Virus record (IMG/VR): IMGVR_UViG_3300032287_004273
Span: 15,359-79,358 of that record
Length of the DNA: 64,000 nt
Origin: a virus
Direction: 5' to 3' (one strand)
Both the position numbers and the translations under genes were made by a program. Shown here one piece after another: positions 2,815 to 43,115 of this stretch. Positions within the stretch are counted from its first letter, which is position 1. Every line of letters begins with the position of its first letter. A model generated the notes under the pieces. It had not been told where the DNA came from, ran no database searches, and saw only the letters and a list, made by a program, of their open reading frames with translations.

Positions 2815-3776
2815 AAGAAATGTTTTCTTATAAAGATGTAGTTTTACTTCCAAATTATTCCGAAGTAAAATCAAGAGATAATTTATCAGCACAGGTAGAT
2901 TTTCTTGGTACTAAATTTAAATTGCCAGTTTTGCCAGCCAATATGGCTTGCACGATTAATTTTAAATGGGCAGAAACTCTTGCAAATGAAGGTTATTTTT
3001 ATATTTTGCACAGATTTTATGAACACAAGGAAATTTTACAATGGCTAACTGAAAAAAATTATTCTAACTTTCCTTTGAGTATTAGCGTTGGAGTCAAAGA
3101 TGCTGATTACGATCTACTCGAAAATTTAGCAGAAAATAATTACAAAGTTGATTTCGTTACAATTGATGTAGCGCATGGACATAACATTCTTGTCAAAAAT
3201 ATCTGCAAGTTTTTTCACCATTTGCCTTGGACTAAAAAGCCAAAATTAATTGTTGGAAATGTTGGTTCTATTTCGGGAGCAAAAGATTTAATTGAGTGGG
3301 GTGCTGACGCAATTAAGGTTGGACTTTCTATGGGTGCAGCATGCACTACATACAATAATACTGGAGTTGGTACGCCAATGTATTCTATTATTTCCGAAAT
3401 CAAAGAAGCAATGGAAAACAAAATTATGCTAAAAGTTCCAATTATTGCTGATGGACAAGTTAGAGAAGTGGGAGATGCGTGCAAAGCTCTTCATGCTGGA
3501 GCAGAAATGGTCATGGTGGGAGGTATGTTTGCGACTTGTTACGATAGCGCAGCGCCATTTAACGGCGACAAAAAAGTTTTCTATGGCTCTGCTTCTGCAA
3601 GGAACAAAGGAGAAGAGAAATATATAGAAGGAAAAGAAAGTTTAATGCAACCATCAAAAGACTCTACCCTTGTTCTTTTAAAAAAATTTGAGCAAGGAAT
3701 TAAGTCATCAATGTCATACGCTGGAGCATCATCGCCTTACGAATTGTGTAAAATGGAAGTAAGGAAAAGAGTATGA
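2811..3776 (+). CDS. guaC: GMP reductase (IMPDH/GMPR family)
   Basis: SYKDVVLLP, IDVAHGH, GNV, KVGLSMGAACTT, IIADG, SSMSYAG motifs. Confidence 0.85.
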   Translation: MKEMFSYKDVVLLPNYSEVKSRDNLSAQVDFLGTKFKLPVLPANMACTINFKWAETLANEGYFYILHRFYEHKEILQWLTEKNYSNFPLSISVGVKDADYDLLENLAENNYKVDFVTIDVAHGHNILVKNICKFFHHLPWTKKPKLIVGNVGSISGAKDLIEWGADAIKVGLSMGAACTTYNNTGVGTPMYSIISEIKEAMENKIMLKVPIIADGQVREVGDACKALHAGAEMVMVGGMFATCYDSAAPFNGDKKVFYGSASARNKGEEKYIEGKESLMQPSKDSTLVLLKKFEQGIKSSMSYAGASSPYELCKMEVRKRV

Positions 3777-4441
3777 CTCCCGAAATCAAAAACAAAATAC
3801 AAAGAATTTTAAACTATATAGAATCTGGCTCGCAAAATGGAAATTATGCAGCCATATCCCTGTATAAGGATGGGCCAAATCAAATCAAGCAAATCACATT
3901 CGGCAAAAGCCAAACAACAGAATGGGGTAATTTAAATAAATTAATATCCTTATATGTTGAAAAAGATGGAAAATTTGCAGACGAGTTAAAACCATACCTA
4001 CAAAAGATTGGAAAAGTTTCATTGGTTAATGATGCAAATTTACTTTCAATTTTAAAAGCTTCTGGTTTAGATCCAATCATGCAAGAATCTCAAGATGAAT
4101 TTTTTGATGAACATTATTGGAAGCCTGCAGTGAAATGGTTCGAATCAAACAAGTTTACTTTGCCGCTTTCTATGTTGGTGATTTATGATTCTTTTATTCA
4201 TTCTGGTAGTATTTTAAGCTTTTTAAGGAATAAATTTTCTGCTTCAATTCCTTCTAAGGGTGGAGATGAAAAAGAATGGATCACTTCTTACTTGAACGTG
4301 AGGCACGAATGGCTCAAGAATCACTCCAATCCCATTCTTAGAAAAACCATCTACAGAACAAGAGACATGCTCTTAGCAGTAGAAAAGGAAAACTGGGATC
4401 TTGAGCAAGTTTATCACTGCAACGGCGAAAATATCAGTTGA
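3773..4441 (+). CDS. chitosanase (GH46, lysozyme-like fold), probable endolysin
   Basis: IESGS...NY...DG...ITFG, QDEFFDEHYWKPA, IYDSFIHSG, YLNVR pattern. Confidence 0.7.
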   Translation: MTPEIKNKIQRILNYIESGSQNGNYAAISLYKDGPNQIKQITFGKSQTTEWGNLNKLISLYVEKDGKFADELKPYLQKIGKVSLVNDANLLSILKASGLDPIMQESQDEFFDEHYWKPAVKWFESNKFTLPLSMLVIYDSFIHSGSILSFLRNKFSASIPSKGGDEKEWITSYLNVRHEWLKNHSNPILRKTIYRTRDMLLAVEKENWDLEQVYHCNGENIS

Positions 4442-4486
4442 CTTTTGAAAACTTCTGATGTATTATCTGGGAGATATACGAAATTT

Positions 4487-4757: not shown

Positions 4758-4982
4758 ATGGAAGAAAAGTCAGTTCCTCAATTTGACGAGTTGCTTTCTG
4801 TCGTAAGTTACGAGATCCTTGATGGTAAGGACGAATACGTAACTTCTTACAGTGCCGATCTCAAAAAAAATACGAATGGTCGTCTTGATGGTCTAAAAAT
4901 GGCTAAAGATACTCTGAGGTATCGTCCAGATTATAGACTTTATGAAGTATATTCTAATGGGTATAGGAAACTGATTGATTAA
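4758..4982 (+). CDS. hypothetical protein
   Basis: ORF in operon, start reassigned to first ATG. Confidence 0.55.
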   Translation: MEEKSVPQFDELLSVVSYEILDGKDEYVTSYSADLKKNTNGRLDGLKMAKDTLRYRPDYRLYEVYSNGYRKLID

Positions 4983-4988
4983 TTTAAT

Positions 4989-5064
4989 CGCAGGTTGGAC
5001 AAGAGGTTAAGTCGTTTGGCTCATAACCAAAAGATCGGGGGTTCAAATCCCTCACCTGCAACCA
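4989..5064 (+). tRNA. tRNA-Met(CAT), initiator-like
   Basis: Cloverleaf, CTCATAA loop, GGTTCAAATCC T arm, encoded CCA, C1:A72 mismatch; only two G-C pairs next to the anticodon loop. Confidence 0.9.
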
Positions 5065-5345
5065 CTTTCGAGTAACCACAAACCCACTGGTAGTAGGAGG
5101 GGCTGTAATTGGAATGTAGCAGCCTGTAATTCCTGCTCGAAAGCGACACATGCCTCTCTGTGAATACGGGGTGCTTGGTCTGGGTTTCCAGACGCTGAGT
5201 TGTGCGACTAATCGGAGAGACGATTATAATCAGTTCCCCCAATTGGGGTGCGACACCTGCTGGTGGCTCCATGCCGCCAGACTTGATTTGGCATAGCACC
5301 TGATGCTTACGCTGGGTTGGGTCAATGGTGTGACACTGGGAGAGA
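5065..5345 (+). ncRNA. putative multi-stem structured RNA of unknown class
   Basis: GC-rich spacer between tRNAs with many nested stems (CTTTCGAGTA/TGCTCGAAAG, GGCTG/CAGCC, GGTGCT/AGCACC, GTCTGG/CCAGAC, AATCG/CGATT, CCCC/GGGG, CTGGTGGC/GCCGCCAG). Confidence 0.55.
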
Positions 5346-5359
5346 CTAGAAATTTTAAT

Positions 5360-5446
5360 AGGAGTGCGGCGAAGTTGGAGAGTCGCAGCAGACTGTAAAT
5401 CTGTTACCTTTTGGTTGAGTCCGTTCGAATCGGTCCACTCCTACCA
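5360..5446 (+). tRNA. tRNA-Tyr(GTA)
   Basis: AGGAGTG/CACTCCT acceptor, CTGTAAA loop, long variable arm, CCA. Confidence 0.9.
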
Positions 5447-5449
5447 TAT

Positions 5450-5521
5450 TCCTGTGTAGCTCAATGGTAGAGCGCCTCGCTGTTAACGAGGATGTTGTAG
5501 GTTCGAGTCCTACCGCAGGAG
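5450..5521 (+). tRNA. tRNA-Asn(GTT)
   Basis: TCCTGTG/CGCAGGA acceptor, CTGTTAA loop, GTTCGAG T loop; CCA not encoded. Confidence 0.9.
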
Positions 5522-5542
5522 CTTTTTTGTGTAAAAAATTAG

Positions 5543-6673
5543 ATGCAAACTTTCACTGAAAAATGGACTGATCTACATAAAGAAGTAGATTTAAATTTAC
5601 TAAGCAATAATTCTAATGAAGATGGTTTTGTTAGAATGGACTTGGTAATGCCCAAATTATATACTCCGAAACATTATTTAGCAACAAATGGATATTTAAA
5701 AGATCGAAAATTTTCAATAGATATAAACGGTTCTAAAAAAACGTCAAACGGAGAAGTTTATTTGAAATATGGATATTTTGTAATGAACAATGTTCATTTT
5801 TCAGATCAATATTTTTTTATAAAAGAAAATAAATATCAAGATTACAACTTTGGAATCGTTGACAATAATCCAGAAAAATCACTTGGACGTTTTTTGCCAG
5901 AGGCAGAAATTAAAAAAGATTTAAATCAATCAATAATAATTGAGGAACCTTGCTTTTTATGCTTACCCTCTAGGGGTCACTACCCAAATTATGGGGCATT
6001 TTTAACCCAAGTTACAACTCAAATTCATGAGTTTAGAAAAATTAATAAAACAATAAAAATTGCAGTAAATAAAACTTTAAAATGGCAAAATGCTGCATTA
6101 AAATATTTTTTTCCAGATTTAGATTTTATTGAAATTGATATTTGGCCAATGAAAAATAGTATCTTTTTTAAAAAAATTGTAATACCTTTTGCAAAAAACG
6201 CTACTATTTTATCTAAAAACGATATAGATTTTTTTAAAAAAAATAGCTTTCATAAAGATTCGAATCGAAGAATTTTCTTATCAAGATTAAAACAGAATGG
6301 AAGAAAATTAGTGAACGAAGATAAGGTTGTTGATTTCTTAAAAAGCAAAAATTTTGAAATTATCTTCCCAGAAGAAAAAGATACTCGACAAATTTCAGAA
6401 ATTTTAGGCGAAGCGGAATATGTTTTTGGAACTGGTGGAGCTGGAATGTTCAATTCCATATTTTGCAAACCAAATACTAAATTTCTATCGATAGAAGGCG
6501 GAAGATGGGCAACCGTACATTCAAAAATGTTTAGTGCAATTGGATTAGACTATTCAATAATACAACCGCACCCAACCTTACCCTTAGATCAAATTAAAAA
6601 TTTGGGACAATGTGAATCTTATGTTAATATTGATGAGTTTATTAATTTCGTAGAAACAAATTACAATTTGTAA
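5543..6673 (+). CDS. glycosyltransferase family 61 (DUF563)-like
   Basis: NYGAFL, RIFLSR...RKLVNE, FEIIFPE, GTGGAGMFNSIF motifs. Confidence 0.75.
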   Translation: MQTFTEKWTDLHKEVDLNLLSNNSNEDGFVRMDLVMPKLYTPKHYLATNGYLKDRKFSIDINGSKKTSNGEVYLKYGYFVMNNVHFSDQYFFIKENKYQDYNFGIVDNNPEKSLGRFLPEAEIKKDLNQSIIIEEPCFLCLPSRGHYPNYGAFLTQVTTQIHEFRKINKTIKIAVNKTLKWQNAALKYFFPDLDFIEIDIWPMKNSIFFKKIVIPFAKNATILSKNDIDFFKKNSFHKDSNRRIFLSRLKQNGRKLVNEDKVVDFLKSKNFEIIFPEEKDTRQISEILGEAEYVFGTGGAGMFNSIFCKPNTKFLSIEGGRWATVHSKMFSAIGLDYSIIQPHPTLPLDQIKNLGQCESYVNIDEFINFVETNYNL

Positions 6674-11295: not shown

Positions 11296-11898
11296 ATGGG
11301 CATGTTCGACACAGTTCTCGTCAAAGACAAACTAATTGAACCATTAGTTGATAAAGATATTTTCGAGGCTATTCAAAAAGATGTAGAAGATGGTTTTCTT
11401 TCTTTCCAAACAAAAGATTTAGAAAACTGTTTATTTTGCTACAAGATTGATGAAGATAAAAAATTAATGCAACAAAGATATGGTTTCATTGAAGACGAAA
11501 CTGAGCCTCTTGGAGGCAGAACTGAACCTCAAGAAGCCACTCACGATACTCGCACAACATATATTGAATTTTATGATGGTTTAGGAGAGGTTGGAGAAGA
11601 CAATATTTTTATTACTTTTAAAGCTCATATTGTTAAAGGTGAGGTTCAAGATATATCAGTTTTCCAAATAGAGAGAACTAATATAAAAGAAATGGAAGAG
11701 AATGGTAAAAAAATCCAAGAAAGATGGGCAAAAATTCGCTCAACTCCAGAATGGAGATTGTGGCATTTAATCAACAACATTGAATGGAAAATTAATAGAT
11801 TCTTTTATCCAGTTAGTCGCAAATACTCTTCCTTCAAAATATATTTAAGACAAAAAGCTGAATCAAAATTTCCAGATGAAAACTCTAGTAGTTGGTGA
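11296..11898 (+). CDS. conserved phage hypothetical (MGMFD...FQTKDL type)
   Basis: MGMFD start and FQTKDL motif. Confidence 0.65.
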   Translation: MGMFDTVLVKDKLIEPLVDKDIFEAIQKDVEDGFLSFQTKDLENCLFCYKIDEDKKLMQQRYGFIEDETEPLGGRTEPQEATHDTRTTYIEFYDGLGEVGEDNIFITFKAHIVKGEVQDISVFQIERTNIKEMEENGKKIQERWAKIRSTPEWRLWHLINNIEWKINRFFYPVSRKYSSFKIYLRQKAESKFPDENSSSW

Positions 11899-12604
11899 CG
11901 TTCATCAAAAAATAGATCAAGTCGAAAAAATAATTTCTGGTTGGAGTGATCAGATTATTTTTATTGGTGATTATTTTGATGACTTTAACGATACTCCAGA
12001 AGATGCAAGAAGAACGGCAAAATGGCTTAAAGAATCTTTGCAAAAGCCTAATAGAATTCATCTTATGGGTAATCACGATTACAATTATCGTATTCGCCCA
12101 CCAGGCGCTTACTACTGCTCTGGATTCACTTTGGAAAAATATGAAGTAATTAATTTAGAATTAACTCTTTCTGATTGGAAAATGATAAAATATTTCCATC
12201 ATGAAAAAGATTCTTCAACAACCTACTGGTTTTCTCACGCTGGCGTTAGCACTCATTGGTTTAAGCATCCTGTATTGGGACTCACGACGGAAGTGATCGA
12301 GAAAAAAGTTAAAGAAGCTGACGAAGCTATTGAAAATAGACTCTTCGACAGTCCTCAAACTGCATGCCTAACTGCTGTTGATATGTACAGAGGAGGAAGA
12401 TGTCAAAAGGGAGGACTGCTTTGGAATCACTGGACAAACTGCGAAGTATTTGATGGTATTACTCAAATCGTCGGTCACACCACAAGAGATAAAATTAAAA
12501 TCAAAAGAGGCAAAAGCTTTAATTCTAAAACAGTGAATATTGATACTCACTTAAAACAATTTTTAATTATTGATGATGGAAATTTAATTATTAAAAACGC
12601 ATGA
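11876..12604 (+). CDS. calcineurin-like metallophosphoesterase
   Basis: GDVH, GDYFD, GNHD, SHAG, GHT motifs. Confidence 0.9.
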   Translation: MKTLVVGDVHQKIDQVEKIISGWSDQIIFIGDYFDDFNDTPEDARRTAKWLKESLQKPNRIHLMGNHDYNYRIRPPGAYYCSGFTLEKYEVINLELTLSDWKMIKYFHHEKDSSTTYWFSHAGVSTHWFKHPVLGLTTEVIEKKVKEADEAIENRLFDSPQTACLTAVDMYRGGRCQKGGLLWNHWTNCEVFDGITQIVGHTTRDKIKIKRGKSFNSKTVNIDTHLKQFLIIDDGNLIIKNA

Positions 12605-37470: not shown

Positions 37471-37547
37471 TGGCGTACCCAGCAGGGTTCGAACCTGCGA
37501 CCAACGGATTAGAAATCCGTTGCTCTATCCAACTGAGCTATGGGTAC
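37471..37547 (-). tRNA. tRNA-Arg(TCT)
   Basis: GTACCCA/TGGGTAC acceptor, TTTCTAA loop, CCA. Confidence 0.92.
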
Positions 37548-37904
37548 TTAAAGACAAGGGTGGAAAGCAAGATCTACATCCTTGCGGTGATATTCTTCAG
37601 ATAGAATGCGCTTTGTCAAGACAATTTCCACCTTGCCAAATGGATAAACATATATCTCACCATAAGTGCCAGCGCCCATATCGAAATCTGGATAATGCTC
37701 CTGTAACAAATGTTCAATTTCATCTTGATAGATTGGAGCAACTTCTTTACTGGAAACGAGTTTGTCCCCAAGCGCAAAGTACACGCAGGAATCAAACCAA
37801 TGAGTACAGGAATCCTCAGAAGTCCAGTGATAGATTGCGTACTTTAGATCACGACTCTTTAGAACCTCAACAAGATCAAGCAATGTCTTTTCCATATGCG
37901 TCAC
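37548..37904 (-). CDS. hypothetical protein
   Basis: First gene of its cassette; TTGCCT/TATGAT promoter. Confidence 0.6.
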   Translation of the reverse strand: MTHMEKTLLDLVEVLKSRDLKYAIYHWTSEDSCTHWFDSCVYFALGDKLVSSKEVAPIYQDEIEHLLQEHYPDFDMGAGTYGEIYVYPFGKVEIVLTKRILSEEYHRKDVDLAFHPCL

Positions 37905-38024
37905 ATCATAAACAATCTTAGCGAGAAGGCAACATTTATTTCAAAAATATTTACGCACTTGTGCGTAATAACACTTGACAGGGAGCCAGGGCTACCCCTG
38001 GGGCGTAACCACCTCATTCTGAGG

Positions 38025-38110
38025 TGGTAGCTAGGGCGGGACTCGAACCCGCACGCCCTACTGGGCAACAGATTTTAAGTCTGTTGTGTCTGCCATTTCA
38101 CCACCTAGCC
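38025..38110 (-). tRNA. tRNA-Leu(TAA)
   Basis: CTTAAAA loop, long variable arm, CCA. Confidence 0.92.
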
Positions 38111-38125
38111 GAAAGAAAAAGAAAG

Positions 38126-38198
38126 TGGGGACGGAGGGATTTGAACCCCCAACCAAGCGATTATGAGTCGCCTGCTCTGACCATTGAGCTACATCCCC
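38126..38198 (-). tRNA. tRNA(CAT), probably Ile2 (lysidine)
   Basis: Anticodon arm GGCGACTCATAATCGCT as in bacterial Ile2 tRNAs; fully paired acceptor. Confidence 0.85.
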
Positions 38199-38204
38199 GA
38201 AAGC

Positions 38205-38591
38205 TTACAATTCAAAAGCGAGAATGTTATCTGATGGAAGAAAGTTCAACTCTGCCTCACCTTCATATAAGGAATATCCTAGCACAGTCAAAGCAAAGAC
38301 GCAAGCATTATCGTAAGAAAAATCTCGAAAGGAATGGATCTCTACACCATCATCTTTGTCCACAATGTAGTAGTCTTTAATCTCATCAGATAAAGATTTA
38401 GGTTCTACACGAAAGCCCAAATGTGTAAGGGCTTGTTCTTCAGGTGTTTGCGGTGATTCTTTATCAATCATTACTTGTTCCTGAAAGGAAGTGTCATCTT
38501 CGATTAGTGTATACGGTTGGTGCATATTTATTTCTTTAACATTAAGCATATTACGACGAGGGTTACGATTAGAGCATCCATAATTAGACAT
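38205..38591 (-). CDS. hypothetical protein
   Basis: Overlaps the upstream stop. Confidence 0.6.
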   Translation of the reverse strand: MSNYGCSNRNPRRNMLNVKEINMHQPYTLIEDDTSFQEQVMIDKESPQTPEEQALTHLGFRVEPKSLSDEIKDYYIVDKDDGVEIHSFRDFSYDNACVFALTVLGYSLYEGEAELNFLPSDNILAFEL

Positions 38592-39279
38592 GAATTACAA
38601 AGCCCGAATTATCTTTTTTTGCTGGCCCCTTGGCACGCAGTCCCACGATTGTATTCTTTGGATCAAGGAAGCGAAGATCGTTTTCATCTCCGTCAATGAC
38701 TTTGAAACCTTCGTGTTCTGTTGGCAAGGGTTGATCTTTTTTAGTGGAGAAAACAAAGGCTGAATTGTTTCCTTTTGCTAAAGCTGCGAAAGCTTTAACT
38801 TGAGACACTTTAGTCTCTGCGCGTGAGAAAGTCAAGTGGTAATTTGAAATTGTCAAGTCCAAACGATCAAACAATTTTGTGTAATCATAGAACTGCACAC
38901 CAGAAAAATGCTGGAAAATGTTTTTGCCCTTGTGGATAATGTCTTCCCATCTGACATCGGAAGTTAAGTTGAGACGAAACACAGCTTGCAAACTTTTCTT
39001 TGCGGCTGATTTGATTCCTGTCTCAATTTCTTTGATTAAATTATCCATGAACAAAGCTTGTTCCTCAAAGAAGCTTTTTGTTTTTTCGATTCGCTGTGGC
39101 TGAACCATGACACCCATGCCAGCCAAGTTAAGGCATGAATCTGTGCAACCTTTAGATCTGCCTTGGCAAACTTCATAACCGCTAATGTTAGCGGGTGCAA
39201 AGTGAATGCCAAAGGTTTCGTATCCGAAGGATCTGCCCTTGAGCGTTTTGTAATTAGCAACGGTGAGTAATTTTTGCAT
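38584..39279 (-). CDS. GP88-like (CxxxxxxCxxxC) phage protein
   Basis: VCQGRSKGCTDSCL, RLNLTSD, FYDYTK, YHLTFS, DGDENDLRFLD. Confidence 0.65.
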   Translation of the reverse strand: MQKLLTVANYKTLKGRSFGYETFGIHFAPANISGYEVCQGRSKGCTDSCLNLAGMGVMVQPQRIEKTKSFFEEQALFMDNLIKEIETGIKSAAKKSLQAVFRLNLTSDVRWEDIIHKGKNIFQHFSGVQFYDYTKLFDRLDLTISNYHLTFSRAETKVSQVKAFAALAKGNNSAFVFSTKKDQPLPTEHEGFKVIDGDENDLRFLDPKNTIVGLRAKGPAKKDNSGFVIHV

Positions 39280-39380
39280 GGGTGAAGAATATCATGAGCA
39301 AGGGGTGGTGCAACAATTATTTCGCAAAATATTTACGCCTTTAGGCGTAATAGTTCTTGACATCCCAGCCAGGGCTACCC

Positions 39381-39577
39381 CTGGCCCCCACCCGATGGGT
39401 GGGGGTCAGCTTCCCGATAGCGTTGGTTGTCAGTTAAACAAACCAAAAAAAGCAAACCAACAATCTATTTGGAAGAGAAAGTAACTGGCCCCCACCCCAC
39501 TGGGTGGGGGTCAGCTTCCCGATAGTTTAGCTCGCTGAGATCCCCTCAGAAAACGCGAGCATCATCTATTTGGAAGA
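39381..39577 (-). ncRNA. two tandem ~100-nt units with constant scaffold and variable insert (candidate sRNAs)
   Basis: Repeats at 39381-39420/39485-39525 and 39463-39476/39564-39577; the scaffold halves base-pair. Confidence 0.45.
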
Positions 39578-40465
39578 ATGGAATTGTCCAAGATTCTGTC
39601 AAGGTAGAACATTCCGAAGTGTGGTTGCTCCACCTTACCGTTCTTTGCTACTATGTAGAGAGTGACAGCTTCAGGTGGGCAATGGTTAGTTCCACCTTTT
39701 GATCCTTTCTTTACGCCAGTACGAACAGTGTAGGTGTTTGTTTCACCTTTCTTGTTATGGTACTTGATCGAAAAGAACTTTCCGTTTGTTGTTGCGATAA
39801 TGCGTTTGCCGATCATATGTGGTGCTGGTTCGAGTGTGTTATTATTCATATAATTATCGTGAAAGATCAACTTGATTGCCATCCTCATCTTCGTCGTCGA
39901 AGTCTTCGTCCTCGTCGTCCCAAACAACATCTGGTTCTGTGGTGTTCATTGCAATGGTAGCGAGCAGATGATCGTAGTCTCCGCTTTGCGCTTCTTTTAG
40001 AACCGCACGAACTTCTTCTTGTGACCAACCTTGGCGAAGCGCGTTGCTTCTCCATGTACCCATAATTGCAAATGCGTTGCCGTCGAGGCCGACCAGTTCC
40101 ATCTTAACTTTCTTGGTTTTTGTGTTTTGCATATCGCTTGTATTGTTTTTTGCTTGGTTGTACGACTCGCAACATTCTGTTGCCCCATCGTAAAGTTTTT
40201 TGATAGGTTACCCCATCGACAATCAGTTTTTGCTTTTTGGAGTCCATACTCTCAACATATCCTCATCCTTCATGATGTCAATCCCAAATCCCAATGTTTG
40301 GAAAGTTTTCTGCAAAGTGTATGCTTGCAACTCAAGAATCTTTTTCATCTCGTTTGATGTCATAGCTTCACCGACAGCTTCCTGCGTAGCCCTGTGGAAT
40401 GCGTAAAGCATTTCACAAAACTGATTTACCAATGGGGTCAACTCTTTGATGGCGTCTTTGTTCAT
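39562..40465 (-). CDS. cassette of three hypothetical genes (40223-40465, 39854-40132 with DGNAFAIMG motif and acidic tail, 39562-39849)
   Basis: TTGCGC-17-TATGAT leaderless promoter at 40499. Confidence 0.65.
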
Positions 40466-40606
40466 GTGGGTATCATATACAGAGCAACCGAATGCGCAAC
40501 ATTTATTTCAAAAATATTTACGTCCTTGGACGTAATAGTTATTGACAGCCCAGCCAGGGGTGGCCCTGGACCCCCGCCTTTCGGCGGGAGACCATTCGTA
40601 TGGAAA

Positions 40607-40912
40607 TTAATGTGCGACTACTTCTGCTTCGTCGATTTCTATGCAGAACTCTCCGCCGCCAAGGGAGAATTCAAACTTATTGCCTGTAAGGGAAACTTCT
40701 TGAGGAAGCCTGCGATCTGTTTTATGGTTAAGCAGAACGCTGTGATCCATCCCATCTTTCCACCTTTCGAGGTGAACATTGGTGGGAACGAAGTGAGTGA
40801 TGTTATGCCAGAGGATCAATCTTTCTTTCTTTTTGATTGCTCTCTTGACTCGCTCAACGTGAGCGTGTTTGACTTTGATCGTGATGTTGGTGTTTCCAAT
40901 GTTTGTTTGCAT
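40607..40912 (-). CDS. hypothetical single-gene cassette
   Basis: TTGCAC/TATGCT promoter then TCTCAC-ATG. Confidence 0.65.
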   Translation of the reverse strand: MQTNIGNTNITIKVKHAHVERVKRAIKKKERLILWHNITHFVPTNVHLERWKDGMDHSVLLNHKTDRRLPQEVSLTGNKFEFSLGGGEFCIEIDEAEVVAH

Positions 40913-41074
40913 GTGAGAAGCATAGCAAAAGCTCTCATGCGTGCAACAATTTTAATTAAAAAAAATTACGCACCTGTGCGCAATAGTTGTTGACAGAAAA
41001 GCCAGGGGTAGCCCTGGCCCCCCGCATAGCGGGGGGTGGGTTGGGAGCGGTGTTACCCGCTCCCCCCGAAGGGC

Positions 41075-41845
41075 TTACGCTTCAGCGCCTGCAAGCTCTT
41101 CAACGTCAATCAGTTGGGGCTCAATGATTGATGCGTGACCCGCAATCGAATCGAAGATTGATTGCATGACCATCGTGCGAGCGGGGAGCTTGGTCAGGTC
41201 GGAGCCTTTCAGGTTCTCCGTCACAGAGTTGTACAGGTTCCACAAGGTGGGCGTGTTGAACTCAGGGTGACGGGGAGCCTTGAACTCTTGCGTGACGGCG
41301 AACACATCGCGAGCGGGAAGCGCCTTAGCTTCAGCGAGTTGAACTGAAAGCTCGCACGCACGATCAAAACCGATTTCGGTGTTCTGATACCGATTGATTC
41401 GGGTTTCCATATCCGTCCAATGCGAGAGAAGGCGACCGATGCCCTCAGACAAAACGCGAGGAATGTCGCGAATGATGTTGACGGTGTGACGGCGAGCCAG
41501 CTTCACATCGCTGGAAAAGCACAGGTTCTCGCATACGATCATGCGGTTGCCAATGCACATACTAGCAGCGAATGACTTGTCGTGCGCGTTACGCAATCCC
41601 AAGACGAGCTTGCGCGAATCGCTATTGATATCGGGGCCAGTGATCTGGAACCCGCCGAAGTACCGTTGACCGAAACGGCCCAGAGCGTGCTTTTCTTCGG
41701 TGACGCTGTAGCCTGCGCGATCCAAAGCGGAAAGCGTTTCTTCCACAAGGAAGGAATGGCTGATTGGGGTGAAGCTGTCCGTGCCATCTGGGGTACGGAC
41801 GGTTGCGAGTTCTTCACGGGAGACGAGGTTCTTTGCAATGATCAT
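41075..41845 (-). CDS. DUF932-family protein
   Basis: PISH, LRNAHDKSFA, RMIVCENLCF, RRHT, TLWNLYNSVTE. Confidence 0.8.
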   Translation of the reverse strand: MIIAKNLVSREELATVRTPDGTDSFTPISHSFLVEETLSALDRAGYSVTEEKHALGRFGQRYFGGFQITGPDINSDSRKLVLGLRNAHDKSFAASMCIGNRMIVCENLCFSSDVKLARRHTVNIIRDIPRVLSEGIGRLLSHWTDMETRINRYQNTEIGFDRACELSVQLAEAKALPARDVFAVTQEFKAPRHPEFNTPTLWNLYNSVTENLKGSDLTKLPARTMVMQSIFDSIAGHASIIEPQLIDVEELAGAEA

Positions 41846-42066
41846 ATGTTTGATTAGGTTTAATGGTTAACTGACAGAAGAGAGTCTCTCACAGCTTGGG
41901 TTTTAGTGCAACGGATTTTTTTGATTTTGAGCATTTATTTTCACCTCAGAAACCATGCCAAGCGCAAATATTTTTGCGCTTGAGCGTAATAGTCTTGACA
42001 GCCCCAGGCCAGGGGTAGCCCTGGACCCCGCCTTTCGGCGGGGTCAAGTGCCTGTGCGTGCCGCAC

Positions 42067-42932
42067 TTACGCCAGATGCGCGATCTTAGCCTCCACAAGG
42101 CGAAGGCGCTCGCGTGCTTCGCGCACATGCGCGAGAGCGAAGTCGGCCACGCCGTTAAGGAGTTCTATGTCGGCCTCTGTGGTGAGACGAGCGACGTTGA
42201 TGTCGCGGACGCACTCGCGTAACACGCGAAGGCTCGCGGTCATGAGTGCTGCGGAGGAGGCGGGTTGTGGTGTGTTTAGTGTCATATTAGGTGTAGCAGA
42301 CAGGGTGGATATCATCCCTTAGTCCATTCCATTTTCTGTTCATCATAATGGAATGGGTGTGCATAACTCTTTTGAGCCTTTGCTTGGATTCTGTCTTGAC
42401 TTTCTTCAACTTGGAAAGTTCCATTTGCAGATAGGTAATCTCATCAATGCTGAGACTTTTTGCGGCTTCAATGATTTGTTTTTTATTCATATTAATTTAA
42501 TGCTTTGATAATGCTTGCGCTGGAGCCCCCTCTGCGAGAAGGAGAAACGCAGAGGGAGCTTGCGCATAGCGCAACAGGGGAAACAACAACCCTGTCCTAC
42601 CGAAAGACTCTTGTCAAATGATTATTGACACCGTTCTTGAAAAACTCATAGTCAACGCAGTCAACCGCATCCAACTTGTACCCACCGATATTCCATTCAA
42701 ACAAAACGTCTGGGCTGGATGGTACGCGCTTCCATGCGTAGATGGTGGCGACTGTATCATTGGGGAATCTTAAGCGCCATTCGATGTTAACTTTTTCGCT
42801 TTCATCGATTGGATTATTATGCTTGTCAGGCGCACCGAATACAGCAACCAATTGGTCGTATGTGCATGAGATGTAACCTTTGAGCGAGGTTCCGTTGATG
42901 AGTGGCGTTCTTCTAACTGCTGTAGTTGTCAT
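42067..42932 (-). CDS. cassette of three genes (42597-42932, 42287-42490, 42067-42285)
   Basis: TTGCAC/TATCTT promoter at 42967; 42597 has GTSLKG, KVNIEW, TIYAWK, WNIGG motifs. Confidence 0.65.
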
Positions 42933-43040
42933 GGATAGAAAGATAGCACAGGAAAGAGTGCGTGCAACTTATTTTTCAAAAATAATTACGCCCTTGGGCG
43001 TAATAGTGCTTGACAGATCCCCAGGGCTACCCCTGGGCGT

Positions 43041-43115
43041 TGGTGGACAGGATGAGACTCGAACTCATAACCAACGCCTTAAAAGGGCGCTGCTCTACCA
43101 TTGAGCTACCTGTCC
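43041..43115 (-). tRNA. tRNA-Lys(TTT)
   Basis: GGACAGG/CCTGTCC acceptor, CTTTTAA loop, CCA. Confidence 0.92.

Follow-up and report, generated by a model that had tools for sequence, protein, structure and literature searches.

What lies between tRNA-Met and tRNA-Tyr in this phage genome? The window analyzed here is a 64,000-nt stretch of a 79-kb IMG/VR virus record, AT-rich and with lambda-like tail genes upstream. On its plus strand, tRNA-Met (CAU), with its CCA encoded, spans 4989–5064 (ARAGORN; 62 bits with the Rfam tRNA model), and ARAGORN places tRNA-Tyr at 5360–5446 and tRNA-Asn at 5450–5522. The 295-nt spacer between the first two has a GC content of 0.50–0.53, versus 0.21–0.40 in its flanks, and positions 5065–5349 form a 51% GC island in a phage contig of about 30% GC. 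The first-pass annotation had located such an island directly behind the CCA of tRNA-Met, and so it is: the tRNA ends at 5064 and the island begins at 5065. The plus strand of the spacer contains no ORF of 50 aa or more. On the minus strand, a 92-aa ORF (5021–5299) overlaps tRNA-Met and has no match in Pfam. Here, we provide comparative evidence that 5065–5349 is structured RNA, encoded on the plus strand, and that it consists of three to four separate small modules, strung together and drawn from two RNA families, which we term D1 and the GYGAC/GAGAGA units.

The predicted plus-strand transcript contains, in order, tRNA-Met, D1, unit A, a small hairpin, unit B, tRNA-Tyr and tRNA-Asn. Read directly from the sequence, the 3′ acceptor strand of tRNA-Asn leads without interruption into UUUUUU (5515–5535). 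This U-run is probably the end of the operon, with tRNA-Asn itself serving as the terminator stem. About 520 nt upstream of tRNA-Met, and separated from it by two small ORFs, is a sigma-70-like promoter match, TTGACT-17-TATTAT (10/12; 4438–4466, plus strand), which could drive the tRNA operon. The first ORF past the tRNA cluster (5543–6673, plus strand) encodes a glycosyltransferase of family 61 (Pfam PF04577, E 1e-19) and heads a run of ORFs that lack a PHROG match. Farther downstream, a 242-aa ORF (11876–12604, plus strand) has weak PHROG matches to RNA ligase and NinI-like phosphatase; it may represent part of an RNA repair system, the phage having tRNAs of its own. A second set of tRNAs (Arg, Leu, Met, Lys), dispersed over 37471–43115, is encoded on the minus strand, and models R1 and R2, described below, detect neither D1 nor units in its vicinity.

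Comparative evidence and the D1 family

Folding energy is a poor guide to this locus. The plus strand of the stretch folds with a predicted free energy of −99.3 kcal/mol, but 20 of 200 shuffled sequences fold equally well (z −1.35). Because this value is not significant, the support for structure is comparative rather than thermodynamic. Five related contigs were located through a neighboring gene. Their spacers are 76–90% identical to that of the window, and whole blocks have been inserted or swapped among them. An 18-mer, TGTAATTGGAATGTAGCA (5104–5121, plus strand), is invariant in these five relatives, and indeed throughout the D1 subfamily to which the window belongs; it matched 22 IMG/VR contigs. 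A degenerate pattern for the 5′ half of D1 then retrieved 99 stretches from IMG/VR, nearly all of them genuine, and a pattern for the repeated motif in the 3′ part, the unit, retrieved at least 120. Thus, D1 is found in about 100 IMG/VR contigs, and units are found in at least 120 contigs that lack D1. The carriers of both families are all uncultured phages. As detailed below, substitutions in the stems are compensatory and include G-U pairs, which makes the fold strand-specific and therefore argues for RNA.

D1 is a 79-nt, three-helix RNA (5065–5143, plus strand), based on an alignment (A2) of 72 distinct homologs. Model R2 scores it at 88.5 bits and finds no second copy in the window. Helix P1 comprises 10 bp, 5065–5074 with 5134–5143. 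This stem had been proposed at first pass, and covariation bears it out: 95.7% of the cells in the alignment are paired, compared to 31–44% when the 3′ partner is slid; 8 of the 10 pairs show changes on both sides; and the covariation score is 0.50, versus about 0.11. Helix P2 (ACCA/UGGU; 5075–5078 with 5088–5091) closes a 9-nt loop, CAAACCCAC. Helix P3 (5096–5105 with 5120–5133) folds as a single hairpin in 70 of the 72 sequences, its stems diverse and its loop UGGAA constant. The 5′ strand of P1 continues unbroken into P2, and therefore P1 and P2 can stack to form a helix of about 14 bp, from which P3 branches off.

Twenty-four columns of the D1 alignment are invariant, 18 of which were fixed by the pattern used to collect the sequences; specifically, the AACCAC, CCC, TGGTA and TAGG columns, together with the CCT columns, were preset by the search pattern and the rule used to define the ends. 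A looser pattern, in which P2 is not fixed, matches almost nothing but coding sequence hit by chance. A stricter version, with the loop of P3 and the 3′ junction as its anchors, recovered 18 stretches. Sixteen of these keep the 5′-half pattern of D1 intact; of the other two, one is an L2 loop variant and one (locus L345) carries a compensatory variant of P2, ACCG/CGG. Hence, while the constancy of ACCA/UGGU in the set of 72 reflects the search pattern that fixed it, the 16 intact cases and the compensatory variant indicate that P2 is a helix whose sequence is itself under selection. For L2 CCC, GG of the P3 loop, UAGG and CCUG, several pairings are possible, and covariation is uninformative since all of these are invariant; our nested model uses UAGG/CC, whereas RNAalifold picked GG(loop)/CC. 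The family can be defined by P1, YAACCAC-N3-CCC-N2-UGGUA, UAGG, P3 with its UGGAA loop, (G)UAANUCCUR and P1′, all of which are present at 5065–5143.

Where is D1 found? Of 87 non-redundant loci, 64 have a tRNA or tmRNA no more than 1.5 kb away, and its strand is in every case that of D1; the other 23 have no RNA gene within that distance. Twenty of 86 D1 copies start no more than 5 nt past the end of a tRNA (0–2 nt in 14 cases), often tRNA-Met, and 10 of 86 end no more than 15 nt before a downstream tRNA or tmRNA. One copy is placed exactly between tRNA-Pro and tRNA-His. D1 thus occupies tRNA arrays as a tRNA gene would, often in a tRNA-sized slot. No unit directly follows D1 in 57 of 86 loci. 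Among these 57 stand-alone copies, 25 have a U-run after P1, compared to 5 of 57 upstream controls, and nothing conserved is seen 3′ of P1′. The arrangement of these U-runs resembles that at the 3′ end of tRNA-Asn in the window. We also compared the D1 pattern to one genome each of 185,579 prokaryote species. Six matches were obtained, of which one is real, and this one lies on a phage-like contig of 28 kb and 32% GC in a Bacteriovoracaceae MAG. Gene clustering across D1 neighborhoods uncovered no shared protein partner, just synteny blocks of related phages and a spurious antisense ORF.

In several related phages, a tmRNA gene lies directly downstream of D1 or units (L019, about 1120–1550; L022, minus strand; L027, about 4000–4400; L028, about 2990–3380), and the same holds for L024, L042 and L101. 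ARAGORN predicts that the tmRNAs of these relatives encode tags of unusual length and acidity, ending in ...LAA or ...AAV; AESFDYAPSVAEADAFLEATGFVGAELLAA is one example.

The GYGAC/GAGAGA units

The remainder of the island contains two copies of a second module. Its scaffold, deduced from 151 distinct copies, reads GYGA-CAC(C/A)-UGC, an insert of 4–70 nt, AGU-(G/U)GUG-YGAC, a gap of 1–2 nt, and then helix Pb, a G-C-closed stem of 4–6 bp around the hexaloop GAGAGA. In its minimal form of about 45–50 nt, the unit consists of two stem-loops 1–2 nt apart, with conserved non-canonical regions. The variable inner pair of helix Pa is C-G in 128 units and A-U in 22, with one exception. Positions 1–4 of Pb are paired in 100, 99, 96 and 87% of units, respectively, versus 11–50% in slid controls, and positions 2–4 each show 5–6 types of pair. 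About 25 nucleotides, at the junctions and loops of this small fold, are invariant among the collected sequences. The inserts fall into a few types, and both the A type and the B type have hairpins bearing compensatory changes.

Both copies in the window carry all elements of the family, and a covariance model built from 28 short units (R1) matches the whole 79-kb record at exactly these two places. Unit A (5143–5226, plus strand; R1 35.3 bits, E 2e-9), assigned from the anatomy of the 151 distinct units, shares its first nucleotide, G5143, with D1. Its Pa pairs 5147–5150 with 5201–5204 (5′ GCGA-CACA-UGCC, 3′ UGUG-CGAC) and encloses two covarying hairpins; its Pb pairs 5209–5214 with 5221–5226 around GAGAGA (5215–5220). 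Unit B (5250–5349, plus strand; R1 41.8 bits, E 2e-11) is supported by covariation in 33 B-type units. Its Pa pairs 5254–5257 with 5327–5330 (5′ GCGA-CACC-UGC, 3′ GGUG-UGAC), its insert holds a hairpin, CUGGUGGC/GCCGCCAG, followed by a second hairpin, and its Pb pairs 5336–5339 with 5346–5349 around GAGAGA (5340–5345). The island had previously been taken to end at 5345, which clips this last hairpin; the actual end is 5349. Just 5′ of unit B is a small palindromic hairpin, CCCC-AAUU-GGGG (5237–5248, plus strand). A hairpin of this kind, with the AAUU loop, directly precedes B-type units in about 21 loci, with compensatory variants such as CUCC/GGAG.

Units occur in arrays of one to five copies. 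Across 99 unit-bearing loci, GC content ranges from 0.28 to 0.70 (median 51%), and the sequence of the unit is kept throughout. In 27 of 96 unit loci, the gene immediately upstream is the major head gene phrog_1328, with the first unit about 30 nt past the stop codon. Cultured relatives of this head gene are all less than 30% identical to it, and the four podophages tested contain no unit; R2 does not match them either. We considered whether the 3′ hairpins of units might act as terminators and rejected the idea, as U-runs are not enriched after the last unit of an array (6/140).

Additional elements are seen near units in other phages. In close relatives of the window phage, a third module, ...CCAUGUGU(G/U)GAAGGAG(C/U)AA..., replaces the AAUU hairpin between units A and B (e.g., L003:7455–7515). 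The same module precedes units in GC-rich phages, being present in 12 loci, including L134, L169, L174 and L222. A fourth element, CCGCCAAGGCUAG...CCUCAAACCGGCGGG, folds into a long hairpin; it immediately precedes units in GC-rich phages and is present in 13 loci, including L116, L119, L129, L132, L217 and L226. Finally, one contig with two units also bears a type II hammerhead ribozyme (L158:11570–11632, minus strand; Rfam 43 bits, above the gathering threshold).

Modularity and relation to known RNAs

At first pass, 5065–5345 was described as an unclassified structured RNA of about 280 nt within the tRNA operon. That it is unclassified, structured and part of a tRNA operon holds, given the covariation and the lack of a match in Rfam. 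That it is a single RNA of two domains does not. Its domain 1 corresponds to D1, which in most loci occurs without a following unit, as noted above. Its domain 2 is in fact two copies of a separate module (R1 35 and 42 bits), one that occurs without D1 in the 99 unit-bearing loci: model R2 finds no D1 in these loci (0.96 Mb) at E values up to 1. The two strands of the GGTGCT/AGCACC helix proposed to close domain 2 belong to two different units, and the AGCACC region is replaced in L003–L005. As for the proposed outer arm, CTCTCT/GGAGAG, CTCTCT is a strand of a local hairpin and GGAGAG is part of an invariant hairpin loop. The count of at least five hairpins in domain 2 was sound, as there are at least seven downstream of the 10-bp stem, most of them with compensatory changes.

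Comparison of related phages points in the same direction. Relatives carry D1 alone or D1 followed by one to four units, and a tmRNA and tRNAs can come between D1 and the units. Among relatives of the window phage, a B-type unit can be found between tRNA-Thr and tRNA-Asn, after a tmRNA, and in L012, L022 and L027 units are found between other tRNAs or after a tmRNA. In L003–L005, the spacer between units A and B has been exchanged for an unrelated module. On this comparative evidence, D1 and the units belong to distinct RNA families. Each family has a compact fold backed by compensatory changes, and as cassettes its members are shuffled, lost and multiplied independently among phages. Because the two families occur independently, the 285 nt in the window are a particular string of cassettes rather than one molecule of fixed architecture. 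In about 10 distinct contigs, though, the cassettes keep the order D1, unit A, spacer element, unit B, and it could be that the cassettes work together in the group of phages to which the window belongs.

None of the RNA families that we searched accounts for either module. With Rfam 15 at the gathering threshold, only tRNAs are detected in the window; at E values up to 10, region 4900–5600 yields only tRNA-derived matches, and no RNase P, GOLLD, ROOL or HDV family. The Rfam tRNA model does not match 5065–5359. Scans of twelve unit loci returned only one tRNA and one hammerhead, both outside the units, and scans of one D1-only locus and one unit array, at E values up to 10, returned nothing relevant. 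ARAGORN finds no tmRNA in the window, and the first-pass judgment that the stretch is not tmRNA, RNase P or GOLLD agrees with these negative scans. With the full region, D1 itself, one D1 variant and one unit array as queries, blastn against 50,697 records of cultured phages returned only tRNA matches or noise. D1 and the units are apparently two undescribed, widespread families of phage RNA. A 2023 survey of IMG/VR lists 8,495 unnamed structured-RNA candidates, and D1 or the unit may be among them (PMC10690425).

In certain respects, D1 resembles a tRNA. It is tRNA-sized and sits in tRNA slots, with a closing stem of 8–10 bp and a 4-bp second stem in the position of the D arm. Unlike a tRNA, it lacks a T arm, an anticodon loop of 7 nt and a 3′ CCA. 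ARAGORN in standard mode makes no tRNA call on any of 72 D1 sequences, and its mitochondrial and armless modes make just three spurious calls, on the opposite strand. The Rfam models for tmRNA and YrlA do not match D1 either. Phage T4 offers a parallel. Its RNAs rnaC and rnaD (species 1 and 2) are likewise small RNAs whose genes directly adjoin tRNA genes of the T4 cluster and share their strand, and are stable RNAs with no function assigned in the T4 annotation; they have gone unexplained for about 50 years. There is no sequence or model similarity to D1 or the units: with filters off, R1 and R2 score no more than 10 bits in the T4 tRNA region, which is noise, and give nothing on rnaC/rnaD. 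Moreover, rnaC has a T-arm-like end, which is absent from D1 and the units.

Possible functions and alternatives

We lean modestly toward the idea that 5065–5349 is a tandem array of independent structured-RNA cassettes, expressed from the plus strand of a phage tRNA operon. The cassettes would be cut from a polycistronic precursor by the nucleases that mature the neighboring tRNAs, the simplest reading given that D1 and units have tRNAs on either side, spaced as tRNAs are. The 5′ end of the next tRNA would be cut by RNase P, as might the acceptor-like P1 of D1; recognition of D1 by RNase P is conjecture, because ARAGORN does not call D1, even in armless mode. The products would be stable small RNAs of about 80–105 nt, persisting like rnaC and rnaD of T4. 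These RNAs might then act through their invariant loops and junctions, either on a partner conserved across bacteria or on themselves. Sequence, and not just pairing, is kept across diverse phages, which points to a universal bacterial partner or a self-contained activity. Our working guess is that D1 may be a mimic of tRNA shape and a processing substrate, and that the units may work at the RNA level, in cis or as sponges, within transcripts whose expression is very high, namely tRNA operons and the major head mRNA. The label "tRNA-operon RNA" fits neither family overall, because 23 of 87 D1 loci lack nearby RNA genes and many units follow protein genes.

It is also conceivable, though we think it rather unlikely, that D1, the units or both represent new classes of self-cleaving ribozyme that cut the precursor of stable RNAs. 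For example, D1 might cut at its own 5′ end and free the mature 3′ CCA of the upstream tRNA, as has been proposed for theta ribozymes. These HDV-like ribozymes of gut phages lie within 5 nt of the ends of phage tRNAs (mostly tRNA-Met, suppressor tRNAs and tRNA-Leu) and have been proposed to trim tRNA trailers (PMC10879173). Like them, D1 is small, conserved and, in the 20 of 86 loci described above, 0–5 nt from the 3′ end of a tRNA, often tRNA-Met. Other features, too, are typical of small ribozymes, including about 25 invariant nucleotides at junctions and loops and the optional, variable stems of the units. A self-sufficient RNA would also explain, as would a universal partner, how the sequence of the unit is kept over the full range of GC content, and the type II hammerhead shows that one unit-bearing locus does contain a ribozyme. 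Nonetheless, no known ribozyme family matches at E values up to 10, the sequence names no cleavage site, and most D1 copies are not immediately behind a tRNA. The fold of D1 also differs from that of theta and HDV ribozymes, which form a nested double pseudoknot whose P1 closes ahead of P4 and whose P2 is the last to close; D1 is a simple three-way junction (P1, P2 hairpin, P3 hairpin, P1′), and the order of its helices does not fit an HDV-like arrangement.

Less likely still, in our view, is a role for the units resembling that of the put RNAs of phage HK022, in which they would affect, in cis, the RNA polymerase that transcribes them. Such an effect would confer resistance to pausing and to Rho-dependent and intrinsic termination across untranslated arrays of RNA genes and past the major head gene. 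The put RNAs, about 70 nt in length and comprising two stem-loops, bind the universally conserved zinc-binding domain of β′ (PMC9378689); putL and putR need no protein and act in cis on their own transcript strand. Units and put RNAs are alike in size (both about 50–70 nt), in having two stem-loops with almost no linker (a gap of 1–2 nt in units) and in their conserved non-canonical parts, and units are always on the transcribed strand with further genes downstream. The placement of units is different, however. They lie mid-operon, after genes and in RNA-gene arrays, not just past promoters, and tandem copies, up to five, would be unexpected for put; their host GC range is far wider as well. 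R1 finds no match in the whole 40.7-kb HK022 genome at E values up to 10 and, with filters off, scores at best 2.9 bits in the 24–30 kb region; R2 has no match in HK022 either. In addition, a T7-like head gene is present in many carriers, which may rely on a single-subunit polymerase.

We consider it improbable that the island encodes one multi-domain RNA of about 280 nt, with long-range helices closing domain 2, akin to a small GOLLD or ROOL. GOLLD and ROOL are orphan structured RNAs of phages and prophages that tend to adjoin tRNA genes, phage tRNAs included, though the Rfam models for them miss here. The recurrent order of D1, unit A, spacer and unit B, and the one-nucleotide overlap of D1 and unit A, which leaves no linker, would fit a single RNA. 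The proposed closing helices are not conserved, though, and the parts are separate in most genomes and exchangeable in L003–L005; furthermore, GOLLD and ROOL each consist of one large RNA, several hundred nucleotides long, as opposed to the separate modules of 50–105 nt seen here.

Finally, it is very doubtful that the stretch is no functional RNA at all but the remnant of a tRNA or pseudogene in decay, a repeat or a site for protein binding at the DNA level, or the 92-aa minus-strand ORF. That frame is open, look-alike ORFs cluster in 19 related loci, and D1 is tRNA-sized and within tRNA arrays. Yet stem substitutions are compensatory and include G-U pairs, which the opposite strand would read as C-A; the lengths of indels do not follow a period of three, entire modules are swapped, and the ORF overlaps tRNA-Met and matches nothing in Pfam. 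D1 lacks a T arm and anticodon loop, is negative with ARAGORN and has 24 invariant positions in 72 distinct sequences (18 fixed by the pattern, but intact in 16 of the 18 stretches from the scan that did not rely on them), the opposite of decay.

A tandem array of independent cassettes thus remains our preferred reading. Two compact folds, each with about 25 invariant nucleotides (24 in D1, 18 of them fixed by the search pattern), recur in hundreds of contigs of uncultured phages, and both are short enough for direct synthesis. Such conservation in small RNAs usually marks a ribozyme, an aptamer for a ligand or protein, or a means of engaging core machinery, for instance RNA polymerase, RNase P or the ribosome. 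The placement of the two families, in tRNA/tmRNA arrays and directly after the major head gene, likewise points to a level of RNA processing, or of control over expression, that has gone unstudied in phages, akin to rnaC and rnaD of T4, GOLLD and ROOL, and the theta ribozymes. A more ambitious proposal, which we hold only tentatively and judge more likely wrong than right by some distance, is that D1 is a new class of catalytic or tRNA-shape-mimicking RNA in tRNA/tmRNA arrays, and that the unit is another new class, with a machine conserved in all bacteria as its target. If this were true, D1 would mature or regulate these arrays; it might, for instance, release itself by cleavage from the 3′ end of the tRNA before it, or engage RNase P.
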